38,051 nucleotides of DNA, taken from assembly GCA_003559495.1 (NCBI GenBank), contig PWLE01000033.1, positions 1-38,051 of the forward strand, given 5' to 3'. This document shows positions 9,123-32,650 of the stretch, piece by piece. Below the pieces are notes generated by a model. The model had not been told where the DNA came from. It searched no databases and saw only the letters and a list, made by a program, of their open reading frames with translations. This DNA is from Mollicutes bacterium (GTDB lineage Bacteria > Bacillota_I > Bacilli_A > RF39 > UBA660). The first letter of the stretch is position 1. Each line of letters opens with the position of its first letter. The position numbers were made by a program, and so were the translations under genes.

Positions 9123-9325
9123 AAAAAAAACATCCTTTTAATAAGGACGTCAAAAACGCGGTACCACCTTAATTCATAGTAACAACTATGCACTTAATAC
9201 TATAACGCGTAACCACATCAACTAAAAAGGTGAATTCACAAATCCTTATTCCTAGTTTGCACCAACCACTAGTTCACTTTAAATAATTATAACTTGTTAC
9301 TATGTCTTTTTTTCGTTAATAAATA
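9123..9325 (-). ncRNA. T-box riboswitch (Phe) upstream of pheS
   Basis: Stem I with AGTA, AGTGA and GGTGCAA motifs, specifier GAA-TTC-A (UUC at 9232-9234), GCGTTA element, T-box AAGGTGGTACCGCG (9157-9170), terminator GACGTCCTT-atta-AAGGATGTT plus U tract. Confidence 0.92.
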
Positions 9326-28949: not shown

Positions 28950-29153
28950 AAAAAAACTCCTCCTTTGTAAGGACGAGTATTACCCGCGGTACCACCTTAT
29001 TTTATAGACTCTACACACTCTGTACTATAACGCGTTACCGTTTTTACCTTATCAATAAAAAACATCAGAAGTGATCCACATATTACTTGTTTGTTAGTTT
29101 TCAGCAACTACTAACTCTCTTGAAAACAAATTTAATATAACGTCTTCGTCATT
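28950..29153 (-). ncRNA. T-box riboswitch (Ile) upstream of ileS
   Basis: Stem I with AGAGAG and GCTGAAA motifs, specifier ATC (29073-29075), GCGTTA element, T-box AAGGTGGTACCGCG (28985-28998), terminator CTCGTCCTT-aca-AAGGAGGAG plus U tract. Confidence 0.92.
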
Positions 29154-29157
29154 TGTT

Positions 29158-29628
29158 TTATAATTCAATTTTTTCTATATCATCAATAATTTCTATTTGT
29201 GATTCCACGACATCTTTTAAACGACGCTTAAATATTTTAATGTTTCTTCTTAAACTATCAGCATCTCTTTCAACTTTTTCGGCTTTTAAAAGCGCTTCAT
29301 TAACAATCCGGCTAGCATTATTTTTAGCATCGCTAATAATTACTTCACTTTCTCGAATTGCCGAACTTTTCATCTTCTCAGAGGTTTTTTGAGCCATTAA
29401 AATCGCTTGGTTTAAAGTGCTTTCCAAACGTTCATAATGTTGTGTTTTTTCTTGTAAATCTTGGTTTGCTTTTTGCAATTGTTTCTCGGTCTCTTCTAAT
29501 TGCGCAATTTTTTGATCCTTTTTTTTAACATCTTCTATAATTACTTCTACTTGATTAATAACTTGATCTAAAAATTTATTAACTTCCGCCGGATCATAAC
29601 CGCGAAGAGTTCGATTAAACTTCTCCAT
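29158..29628 (-). CDS. divIVA: Cell division protein DivIVA
   Basis: FNRTLRGYDPAEVNKFLD, coiled coil, TLNQAILMAQKT. Located between sepF and ileS. Confidence 0.92.
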   Translation of the reverse strand: MEKFNRTLRGYDPAEVNKFLDQVINQVEVIIEDVKKKDQKIAQLEETEKQLQKANQDLQEKTQHYERLESTLNQAILMAQKTSEKMKSSAIRESEVIISDAKNNASRIVNEALLKAEKVERDADSLRRNIKIFKRRLKDVVESQIEIIDDIEKIEL

Positions 29629-30175: not shown

Positions 30176-31537
30176 CTAATATTTTATTTTTTCTTGCACA
30201 TAAGCCTCAATTTCATCGATAGCAATGGTTTCTTGCGACATTGTATCACGATCACGAATTGTTACTGTATTATTATTTAGCGTCTCATCATCAATAGTAA
30301 CCGCCATTGGCGTTCCAATCGCATCAGCACGACGATATCTTCTGCCAATATTACCTGTTTCATCATAAGAAGTCATAAAACTTTTTGCTAATTTTTGATA
30401 AATTTCAAAAGCTTTTTCACTATGATTCTTTTTCATAAGGGGCAAAACAGCAACTTTATAAGGCGCCAAAAAGGGATGTATTTTTAATACTAAGCGCGTT
30501 TCTTCCGCTAATTTTTCTTCATAAAAAGCATCACAAAGAAATGCTAAAAACATCCGATCTGCTCCTAAACTCGGTTCAATAACATATGGAATGTATTTTT
30601 TTTCTGTTTCGGGATCAAAATATTCCATACTTTGCTTTGAAAATTCCTGATGTTTTTTCAAATCATAATCCGTCCTAGAAGCAATCCCCCACAATTCTTC
30701 TAAACCAAAAGGATATTGATAATCAATATCAGTTGTTGCATCACTATAATGACTTAGTTCATCTTTACTATGGTCACGCAAATTAATATTTTCTTTTTTC
30801 AAACCTAATTCTAACAACCAATTATAACAAAAATCCTTCCAATATTGAAACCACTCTTTTTCACTTCCTGGTTGGCAAAAAAACTCTAATTCCATTTGTT
30901 CAAATTCACGCGTTCGAAAAATAAAATTACCCGGCGTAATTTCATTACGAAAACTTTTTCCAATTTGACCAATGCCAAACGGAACTTTCAAACGCATTGT
31001 TCGCTGCACATTTAAGAAATTAACAAAAATTCCTTGTGCTGTTTCAGGACGTAAAAATATTGTATTTGCCTTTTCTTCGGTAACACCTTGAAAAGTTTTA
31101 AACATTAAATTAAATTGCCTAATATCGGTGAAACTAGCATCCCCACAAGCCGGACATTTTATTTCTTTTTCTTTTATAAAATCTAACATTTTCGCATTCG
31201 ACCAACCATCGACTTCCACATCATGCTTATTAGTAATTAAATGATCAGCACGATGACGTGTTTTACACTTGCGACAATCTGTTAGTGGATCACTAAAACC
31301 ACTTAAATGACCACTTGCTTCCCAAGTAGTTGGATTCATTAAAATTGCGGCGTCCATACCAACATTATAAGTATTTTCTTGAATAAATTTTTGCCACCAA
31401 GCCTTTTTAATATTGTTTTTCAGTTCTACTCCTAAAGGTCCGTAATCCCATGTATTAGCAAGACCTCCATAAATTTCACTTCCTTGAAAAACAAAACCAT
31501 ATTGTTTAGCATAATTAACAATTTTTTCAAACTTCAT
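30176..31537 (-). CDS. glyQS: Glycine--tRNA ligase (alpha2 type)
   Basis: [44 protein letters not shown] and IEPSLGADR. True start ATG 31537 with RBS AAGGAGG; the ORF-track extension lies in the leader. Confidence 0.96.
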
Positions 31538-31544
31538 ATTAATC

Positions 31545-31697
31545 CTCCTTATTTTTTTCTCTTTATTAAAAAAACTTCTAGAACAATTGTAAGGACGAGA
31601 CAATTCCCGCGGTTCCACCCTACTTATTCTAAAAGAATCTCTTTTTACATATTGCTCGGAGTTGCCAACCTCTTCAACGCATTATTTGATAAATCAT
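31545..31697 (-). ncRNA. Miniature T-box riboswitch (Gly) upstream of glyQS
   Basis: Ultrashort Stem I TGCGTTGAAGAG-gttGGCaa-CTCCGAGCA (31653-31681) with GGC at 31664-31666, Stem III ATTCT-ttt-AGAAT, antiterminator AGGGTGGAACCGCG (31608-31621)...CGTCCTT. Confidence 0.85.
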
Positions 31698-31703
31698 AAA
31701 CAA

Positions 31704-31732
31704 AGTATACTACAAACTCTTTAACTTGTCAA
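31704..31732 (-). promoter_or_regulatory. SigA promoter of the glyQS leader
   Basis: TTGACA (31727-31732), 17 nt spacer, TATACT (31704-31709). Confidence 0.8.
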
Positions 31733-31868
31733 TTAATAAAAGATATTAATTACTGTTAAAAAACTCTTTATAAAAACCAAATGATGCTCTATTGCAAAAT
31801 GTTTTATAACTCCCAAGCCCCAAAATTTTTTATAGTTTCACACAATAACTCCATGCAATATAACAGCT

Positions 31869-31897
31869 ACTATAAAACTTTTTTTTATTTTTGTCAA
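31869..31897 (-). promoter_or_regulatory. Second SigA-type promoter in the recO-glyQS intergenic region
   Basis: TTGACA (31892-31897), 17 nt spacer, TATAGT (31869-31874). Confidence 0.65.
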
Positions 31898-31909
31898 TTA
31901 AAAATTACT

Positions 31910-32650
31910 TTATTCTAATTCACTTATTTTATTTAAAAACTCATCACTACGCATAAAAATTCCCGTATAATCACGATAATATTGCTCTAAAAATTTATTA
32001 ATTTCTTTTTTTACATTCGCTTGAATATTAATTTTACTTATTTTTTTTATATCAACATAACAAAGCATTCGTAACATTTTAATTGTTTTTTTATCATATA
32101 TGTCCTCATCTTCATAACATTGATAACAAACATAACCACCACGACGCACTGATAATGTTTTTATTCCTTTGACACTTTGACACAAAACACAATTATCAAC
32201 TACTGGTGCCACCCCTAAATAATTTAAAAAACGTAATTTTAATATTAAAGTTACTACCAAAGGATCAAAACCAGCCGCAATTTTTTCTAAAGCATTAAGT
32301 ACTTGCTTTAAAATATCCTTTTCTTTACTTTCCTTGTATACTTGTTCCGCTAAATCTAAAATAAATAATGCATAACTAATTTTAATAATATCATTGCGAA
32401 TGCCAAAGAAACTATCAATTAAATCAACTTCCTTTAAAATCGATAATTTTTTTTCTTTATAATAAAGATAAAAATTACCATAAGTTAATTTTTGGCTAAC
32501 ATTACAAAAAGGACTTTTAATATTACGACTTCCTTTGGCGATAACGCCGATTATACCATAATCAGCCGTTAAAAGATTTAAAATTCGACTACTTTCACCA
32601 TAATCAAAATCACTTATAATAATACCGGATACTTTCTTAATTTCCGCCAT
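31910..32650 (-). CDS. recO: DNA repair protein RecO
   Basis: DYGESSRILNLLT..YGII.VIAKG, zinc motif CVLC...CYQC. Follows era. Confidence 0.92.
   Translation of the reverse strand: MAEIKKVSGIIISDFDYGESSRILNLLTADYGIIGVIAKGSRNIKSPFCNVSQKLTYGNFYLYYKEKKLSILKEVDLIDSFFGIRNDIIKISYALFILDLAEQVYKESKEKDILKQVLNALEKIAAGFDPLVVTLILKLRFLNYLGVAPVVDNCVLCQSVKGIKTLSVRRGGYVCYQCYEDEDIYDKKTIKMLRMLCYVDIKKISKINIQANVKKEINKFLEQYYRDYTGIFMRSDEFLNKISELE

Follow-up and report, generated by a model that had tools for sequence, protein, structure and literature searches.

A reduced glycine T-box leader of glyQS in a Mollicutes bacterium and its relatives, with a terminator predicted to pair with the Stem III region

How small can a leader be and still sense tRNA and control transcription as a T-box? 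This question is raised by the leader of the glycyl-tRNA synthetase gene glyQS in a Mollicutes bacterium (GCA_003559495.1, contig PWLE01000033.1, positions 1-38,051; this whole stretch of 38,051 nucleotides is called the window here). The leader is located at 31681-31568 on the minus strand, as is glyQS itself with its ATG at 31537. Sequence comparison makes it likely that this leader is a genuine tRNA-Gly-sensing T-box, attenuating transcription of glyQS in a reduced form. An initial annotation of this DNA had proposed a minimal T-box architecture of about 90 nucleotides (nt), and the idea gains support from a tRNA-sensing core of ~93 nt, which is part of a switch of ~115-130 nt altogether, and from its wide occurrence among relatives. 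The parts of the locus are as follows.

31704-31732, minus strand: promoter-like site of the sigma-70 type, TTGACA (31732-31727), 17 nt, TATACT (31709-31704), 11 of 12 matches
31653-31681, minus strand: ultrashort Stem I, 29 nt, from sequence and covariation in 39 leaders
31669-31662, minus strand: apical specifier loop GUUGGCAA, glycine codon GGC at 31666-31664, U at position -1, A31663 at position +1
31652-31639, minus strand: single-stranded A-rich linker AUAUGUAAAAAGAG, 14 nt; A31653 just before it closes the C-stem
31626-31638, minus strand: Stem III, AUUCU (31638-31634), loop UUU, AGAAU (31630-31626), then AA (31625-31624), from sequence
31623-31589, minus strand: antiterminator GUAGGG-(UGGAACC)-GCGGGA-AUUG-UCUCGU-CCUUAC, from the RF00230 alignment and covariation
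31586-31575, minus strand: predicted terminator 3' strand UUGUUCUAGAAG, partner CUUUUAGAAUAA at 31635-31624 in minimum free energy (MFE) folds
31568-31574, minus strand: run of seven U directly 3' of the long hairpin, from sequence
31550-31544, minus strand: Shine-Dalgarno sequence AAGGAGG, outside the switch
30176-31537, minus strand: glyQS-type glycyl-tRNA synthetase with tRNA-synt_2b and HGTP_anticodon domains, the gene predicted to be regulated

Stem I starts with a 3-bp C-stem (UGC/GCA), followed by a K-turn-like GUU bulge, tandem G-A/A-G pairs and an A-C mismatch, and ends in a 3-bp helix (GAG 31672-31670 with CUC 31661-31659) that carries a loop of 8 nt. A long Stem I with an AG bulge and a distal double T-loop platform is absent, the loop closing 3 bp above the K-turn. 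Likewise, a Stem II with S-turn and Stem IIA/B pseudoknot is missing, with no helix predicted in the A-rich linker of 14-20 nt between Stem I and Stem III. Counted with the A that closes the C-stem, this linker has 15 nt in the window and stays within 14-20 nt in all 39 leaders studied in detail, which agrees with the absence of Stem II stated in the initial annotation. Its 3' end, AAGAG, fits the RRRxG purine string ahead of Stem III as defined in PMC7583486 (the papers cited here by such numbers were available in part). In the antiterminator, A1 is formed by GUAGGG (31623-31618) and CCUUAC (31594-31589) and A2 by GCGGGA (31610-31605) and UCUCGU (31600-31595), with a G-U pair at the base of A2 and the 7-nt bulge UGGAACC at 31617-31611. 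The stretch CUUUUAGAAUAA (31635-31624) comprises the Stem III loop, the Stem III 3' strand and the AA flank. Thus, the promoter-like site followed by a 29-nt Stem I, the K-turn-like GA motif, the short helix, the GGC in the terminal loop, the linker, Stem III and the UGGA-ACC antiterminator are all present in the minus-strand sequence where the initial annotation had placed them. The span it gave for the element was too short, since it stops at 31590 and omits the terminator 3' strand and the U-run, and the unusual terminator topology described below was missed.

At its cut-off, the Rfam T-box model RF00230 detects two full-size leaders in the window, and the glyQS leader is not among them. 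A permissive search of 501 nt matched 31588-31759 with 40.8 bits, compared to a gathering cut-off of 93, and an E-value of 1.1e-7. The alignment covers Stem III and the antiterminator only; about 80 Stem I positions are deleted and what remains of Stem I is forced onto the promoter. Among the seven RF00230 T-box matches in this genome (567 kb, 83% complete) the glyQS leader is the weakest. The RF00230 search suggested by the initial annotation therefore gave a divided result, with a significant alignment for the 3' half and a score below the cut-off for the whole.

Genes for glycyl-tRNA synthetase are present in 61 of 61 related genomes. When 30 glyQS upstream regions were inspected, that of the window included, nine contained the same small leader immediately before the gene, all of them in the window's own family, and five loci from other families of the class contained full-size glycine T-boxes. 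The nine small leaders, with their 3' tail, were used to construct a covariance model (R1). Of 151 genomes of the family, each from a different genus, 119 gave exactly one R1 match with an E-value of at most 1e-9 and a score of at least 62 bits, and 110 of the 151 reached at least 70 bits. In a sample of the order, R1 matched 88 family genomes out of 119 and did not match the single genome from the only other family; in a sample of the class, it matched 11 of 13 genomes of the family and one of 137 from 25 other families. This lone strong match outside the family (G277, 63.5 bits) was rejected as a small form, because it is the 3' half of a full-size glycine T-box with an ordinary terminator, and R1 scores of about 62-66 bits are therefore no proof of the small form. 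Further R1 matches of ~97-130 nt in genomes of the family were rejected as well: at least 8 of 12 are 3' parts of full-size T-boxes (RF00230 83-100 bits), one scores 66.7 bits with RF00230 (L076), one is cut by a contig end (L069) and one is without Rfam match and full size by eye (L077), so that only a hisS leader (L075) remains short. The detailed analyses reported here cover 39 small leaders; the remaining ones are known by their R1 score.

Six inspected loci of the family (L015, L018, L021, L023, L026, L030) contain no T-box within 330 nt upstream of glyQS, and T-box regulation has therefore apparently disappeared or been relocated on several occasions in this family. In the other three genomes of the genus to which the window belongs, an additional open reading frame (ORF) of 283 amino acids with a TIM-barrel fold follows the small leader (L009, 2445-3296; also L010 and L017). 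This ORF is xylose-isomerase-like and overlaps the glyQS start, and the leader would therefore control a two-gene operon in these genomes.

The proposed structure is strongly reflected in the alignment of the 39 leaders. Standard base pairs were found in 95% of the cells, a value reached by none of 500 shuffles, and when the 3' partners were slid by one to three columns only 34-51% remained paired; the covariation that the initial annotation had proposed to look for in glyQS leaders is thus present. Double changes occur in each pair of the 3-bp apical helix (13, 10 and 6 cells), and the third pair of the C-stem (columns 5/38) occurs as UA in 25, AU in 10 and CG, GC and GU in one leader each. 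The K-turn is visible at the sequence level, with GA on the 5' side in 39/39 leaders and GA, AA or UA on the 3' side, next to the covarying 3-bp C-stem. In A1 two of four pairs covary and in A2 four of six. Of the 39 leaders, 35 retain the basal G-U pair of A2, to which the principal role in detecting the aminoacyl group has been ascribed (PMC7583486), and all retain the bulge UGGAACC. The four outer pairs of Stem III are standard in 39/39, and its sequence is nearly invariant (one U-G), so that Stem III gives no covariation signal; directly 3' of it AA is found in every leader. Apical loops are 7-9 nt long. The same helices were predicted by RNAalifold on its own, from an alignment that had been fitted to the model and thus leans towards it. 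Together, the match of the 3' half to RF00230 and the conserved, covarying whole element confirm that the leader is more than a chance arrangement.

The apical loop contains a glycine codon in all 39 leaders, GGA in 30, GGC in eight and an ambiguous GGG/GGA in one. Loss of GGC from orthologous leaders had been named in the initial annotation as a finding that would speak against a glycine T-box; the codon does vary, but because it changes only among glycine codons the result is in the leader's favour. The base before the codon is U in 39/39 leaders and the base after it a purine (A in 38, G in one). In the genome of the window, the tRNA genes for tRNA-Gly(GCC) and tRNA-Gly(UCC) both have U73-CCA and A37; the A of the bulge UGGA is complementary to the discriminator U73 of both, as the initial annotation had expected for U73 of tRNA-Gly. 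Furthermore, the sequence UUGGCAA in the loop of the window is perfectly complementary to UUGCCAA, the 7-nt anticodon loop of this genome's tRNA-Gly(GCC). Over all leaders, contiguous complementarity between the two loops extends over five bases in 15, six in 21 and seven in three; with U at -1 and A at +1 in all and in 38 of the 39 leaders, respectively, every loop is complementary to at least tRNA positions 33-37. A gene resembling tRNA-Gly(GCC) was found in six of the eight genomes with a GGC specifier, the two misses being genomes that are 89% and 64% complete. In the other 31 genomes (30 GGA, one GGG/GGA) a UCC-type match was found in 15 and GCC only in 10; a GGA codon cannot be read by a GCC anticodon, and these counts thus reflect a strict search pattern or missing contigs. 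In tRNA-Gly, A37 is not known to be modified. Our hypothesis is that an extended helix between specifier loop and anticodon loop may offset the missing contacts, which an apical loop, unlike an internal loop, could allow. A K-turn-binding protein of the L7Ae family was not found in the genome of the window (G000, 83% complete), in which all T-boxes keep K-turn motifs.

Where the transcript starts is important for the claimed shortness of Stem I. Upstream of the leader lies recO (31910-32650) and downstream glyQS, in the local gene order era-recO-glyQS-sepF-divIVA-synthetase. Stem I begins about 23 nt past TATACT, and transcription would start near 31697. In this AT-rich region four promoter-like sites were seen compared to 4.7 +/- 2.3 in shuffles; because a match like that at 31732-31704 is no rarer than chance in such DNA, the 5' end of the leader is one that we infer. 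Among the 34 related leaders printed, the best -35/-10 pair (at least 9/12) ends 11-28 nt before the K-turn in 26, a count without shuffle control. Conservation among the relatives starts at the K-turn, and the sequence further upstream is not conserved and is coding in several of them. The 170 nt upstream of the leader promoter do not fold more stably than shuffles (z -0.56), and neither this comparison nor RF00230 revealed a full Stem I there; the initial annotation's claim that the distal part of Stem I is lacking agrees with all these observations. The spacer between recO and the T-box promoter (31740-31909, minus strand, 170 nt) has a promoter-like site of its own, TTGACA-17-TATAGT at 31897-31869 with 11/12 matches, and no Rfam match.

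Known T-boxes build the 5' side of their terminator from the A1 and A2 3' strands (reviews including PMC7583486), and because these strands are shared, antiterminator and terminator are mutually exclusive. Ahead of the U-run of the glyQS leader, these strands have no complementary partner. In the MFE fold, the 12 nt before the U-run pair instead with the Stem III loop, the Stem III 3' strand and the AA flank, A1 is extended and the intact antiterminator is located at the tip of the hairpin. The base helix of this terminator has different registers in different genera, which blurs covariation in fixed columns, and folds of the single sequences were therefore compared with shuffles. At least seven of the last 10 nt before the U-run were paired to the Stem III region in 38 of the 39 leaders and in ~14% of shuffled 3' segments; the 39th is an exception caused by the delimiting of the segment and shows the same fold when viewed individually. 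The first-pass folds gave this pairing in 37/39 leaders, both exceptions resulting from U-run detection, and A1/A2 with a free bulge persisted in 36/39. The energy gained with the 3' segment averages -11.9 kcal/mol compared to -2.8 kcal/mol for shuffled segments; in 30 of the 39 leaders none of 100 shuffles was as good as the native segment, and in 38 at most five were. If the T-box 5' strand was barred from pairing, the fold became less stable than the unconstrained one in 39/39 leaders, with the 3' strand still on the Stem III region in 36/39 printed folds. A U-rich run (at least five U in six) was located after the hairpin in all 39 leaders. Compensatory changes were observed in the terminator as well (columns 65/126: UA in 13, CG in 10), and pairing with the Stem III region survives sequence changes, for example from UCUAGAAU/AUUCUGGA to UCUGGAAU/AUUCCAGA. 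The predicted terminator thus appears to bypass the 3' strand of the antiterminator, which is a new observation.

The six full-size T-boxes of the same genome have ordinary terminators (five classed by script, one by eye), and the nested arrangement is therefore not a general folding habit of this lineage. Two of them are located in the window, where the initial annotation had correctly described the Phe and Ile T-boxes as full-size:

28966-29161, minus strand: full-size T-box with ordinary terminator, RF00230 111.9 bits, upstream of an ORF for a class I synthetase of 907 amino acids (Ile)
9140-9322, minus strand: full-size T-box with ordinary terminator, RF00230 105.8 bits, upstream of pheS/pheT

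In an unbiased sample of 29 T-boxes from the class, 18 were ordinary, two nested (L113 clear, L100 doubtful) and nine unclassified. Among other T-boxes in loci of the family, 10 of 12 were classed as nested, a biased proportion since R1, by which these loci were chosen, includes the 3' tail. The nested form was seen in full-size T-boxes specific for other amino acids at seven loci of the family (L068, L070, L074, L076, L077, L078, L079) and at one of another family (L113). There the strand before the U-run pairs with Stem III and A1/A2 with the bulge stay intact, so that a terminator pairing with Stem III is not limited to the small glycine leaders.

A possible mechanism can be outlined, in which docking of the tRNA and the latch follow the known mechanism of the T-box family and the invasion of Stem III is taken from the folds. 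The anticodon loop of uncharged tRNA-Gly(GCC) would pair with the specifier loop, for which five to seven contiguous complementary bases are available, and its UCCA end would pair with the bulge UGGA. The purines of Stem III (AAGAG ... AA) might then latch onto the UCCA-UGGA duplex and keep Stem III closed, the strand 31586-31575 would stay single and RNA polymerase would read into glyQS. With charged tRNA or no tRNA, the same strand would open the weak 5-bp Stem III and zip up about 12 pairs next to A1, and the long hairpin abutting the U-run would end transcription at 31568-31574. The competition would thus be for Stem III, the antiterminator helices not being contested. Since appreciable tRNA binding by the antiterminator depends on Stem III (PMC7583486), removal of Stem III should shut the sensor off.

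The leader might even represent a third T-box architecture, a two-contact transcriptional switch that combines a kissing-loop grip with competition for Stem III and needs neither elbow platform nor Stem II; we regard this as possible rather than probable. The place of the elbow platform and Stem II would then be taken by a kissing interaction of 5-7 bp that joins the apical specifier loop to the entire anticodon loop, with the invariant U 5' of the codon pairing with the unmodified A37, and Stem III with its purine flanks would be contested with the antiterminator helices folded in both states. Several points weigh against the proposed function and topology. A truncated Stem I has little affinity for tRNA unless Stem II is present, and an elbow platform is generally needed by transcriptional T-boxes (both PMC7583486), so that weak tRNA binding is to be expected for the small leader from the biophysics known for truncated Stem I's. 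GGA, present in 30 of the 39 leaders, gives a weaker codon-anticodon duplex than GGC. Stem III has no support from covariation and the promoter-like match none from its frequency, the base helix of the terminator is only 62-79% paired in a fixed register, and a simple terminator scan gave nothing at the leader, where the base of the hairpin is AU-rich and its "loop" is the whole antiterminator.

The most serious alternative accepts that tRNA-Gly is sensed and holds that the switch is an ordinary one, in which A1 is broken in the OFF state and the nested hairpin is either a folding artefact of AU-rich sequence or a default terminator. The mechanistic literature, including PMC7583486, with its A1/A2 3' strands as terminator 5' strand, would favour this view, as would the invariance of Stem III and the fact that thermodynamic folds are silent on the co-transcriptional order. 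We nevertheless consider it unlikely: the ordinary partner of the A1/A2 3' strands is missing before the U-run, the barred folds lose stability while their 3' strand mostly remains on the Stem III region, the complementarity to that region is far above shuffles and survives sequence changes, and the ordinary arrangement of the genome's six full-size T-boxes argues against a lineage habit. It could also be that the apical loop is not a working specifier, the leader either reading only the 3' end of the tRNA or being a decaying, constitutive remnant. In its favour, known truncated Stem I's are poor tRNA binders when Stem II is missing (PMC7583486), and the 31 of 119 family genomes in the order sample that have no R1 match at an E-value of at most 1e-9, together with the six leaderless loci, suggest that the regulation is dispensable. 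A loop without function would hardly keep U-GGN-purine in 39/39 leaders while the helix beneath it changes by compensatory pairs, nor would its codon vary at the third base only among bases that preserve glycine, and a remnant would not retain K-turn, loop and linker length over more than 100 genera; this explanation is accordingly very unlikely.

Two further alternatives concern the ends of the leader, and we give hardly any weight to either. A transcript that starts upstream, for instance at the second promoter-like site (31897-31869, 11/12) 165 nt upstream, could contain a full Stem I of which the short hairpin is merely the base. RF00230 finds no Stem I in that DNA and deletes its ~80 positions, the fold of 276 nt upstream is no better than shuffles, the codon is located in a closed apical loop and not in an internal loop, and the DNA before the K-turn is unconserved and in several relatives coding or promoter-like within 11-28 nt. 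Equally improbable is translational control by hiding of the ribosome-binding site, as in the actinobacterial T-boxes with short Stem I; all ultrashort Stem I's described so far in the available parts of PMC7583486 are translational. Here, hairpin and 7-U run end ~18 nt ahead of the Shine-Dalgarno sequence, which is unpaired in the folds and absent from the conserved pairings. We thus prefer the reading of the leader as a reduced, tRNA-Gly-sensing transcription attenuator.

A second reduced T-box may be present in the genome G012, where the hisS leader already mentioned (L075, 595-724, minus strand) is only ~130 nt long, scores 47 bits with RF00230 and has a promoter-like site just upstream. 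Its short hairpin loop AAGUGACA contains GAC and CAC; the bulge UGGU has no Watson-Crick match to G73 or C73.

With moderate certainty, the design of the small glycine leader appears to be undescribed, and a prior account in Sherwood 2015, Vitreschak 2008 or the "truncated Stem I" entries of TBDB is possible. The available parts of PMC7583486, PMC7778990, PMC11404447, PMC10907184 and PMC2494555 contain no account of such a T-box, be it for glycine or transcriptional, or of a terminator pairing with Stem III, and the survey of glycyl T-boxes from 2024 shows a classical Stem I in all leaders compared (PMC11404447, same limit). If confirmed, the small leader would challenge the rules that transcriptional T-boxes need a long, elbow-gripping Stem I and that a short Stem I depends on Stem II and is restricted to translational control (both PMC7583486). 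As a natural and widely conserved leader without either part and with a terminator, it would bear on the lower size limit for T-boxes, and its many natural variants could be used for testing what offsets the missing contacts. Structural studies and the engineering of tRNA sensors might profit from so small a scaffold. A terminator that competes for Stem III would, if true, be a second way to wire the sensing of aminoacylation to expression. Finally, the leader illustrates the shrinkage of a regulatory RNA in bacteria with genomes near 1 Mb.

Judged by the general hallmarks of T-boxes, the leader has the UGGNACC bulge, the match to the discriminator base, a glycine codon followed by a purine, the Stem III flanks and the A2 G-U pair, and the K-turn sequence; it lacks the long Stem I platform, a score at the Rfam threshold of 93 bits and a terminator based on A1/A2. 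With the ileS type it has the apical specifier in common, without the Stem II and pseudoknot or the Shine-Dalgarno sequestrator.

The glyQS T-boxes of Bacillus and Geobacillus precede the same gene, likewise carry the bulge UGGAACC for U73 and have no Stem II (PMC7583486, PMC11404447). A K-turn is also common to both, as are a linker of ~14 nt rich in purines, purines on either side of Stem III and a terminator with a U-run. Their Stem I, however, is ~100 nt long, its codon lies in an internal loop and its double T-loop platform stacks on the tRNA elbow, whereas the small leader has nothing above the codon, and their terminator uses the A1/A2 3' strands while that of the small leader is predicted to use the Stem III region. 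The actinobacterial ileS T-boxes resemble the small leader in that their short Stem I rises from a K-turn, presents the specifier in its apical loop and has no elbow platform. They differ in retaining the Stem II S-turn and the IIA/B pseudoknot, required for tRNA binding and both absent here, and in acting on the ribosome-binding site by a sequestrator, whereas the predicted output of the small leader is a terminator (PMC7583486). The nearest full-size counterparts are the glycine T-boxes of sister families (L024, L025, L029, L031, L037, L090), with R1 scores of 33.6-47.7 bits and 63.5 bits for L090. These keep a long Stem I, and the terminator is ordinary in the three read by eye (L029, L031, L090). 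Four of the six have the A of the GAA turn immediately 5' of the codon, L024 has U there and L025 has C, in contrast to the invariant U of the small leaders.

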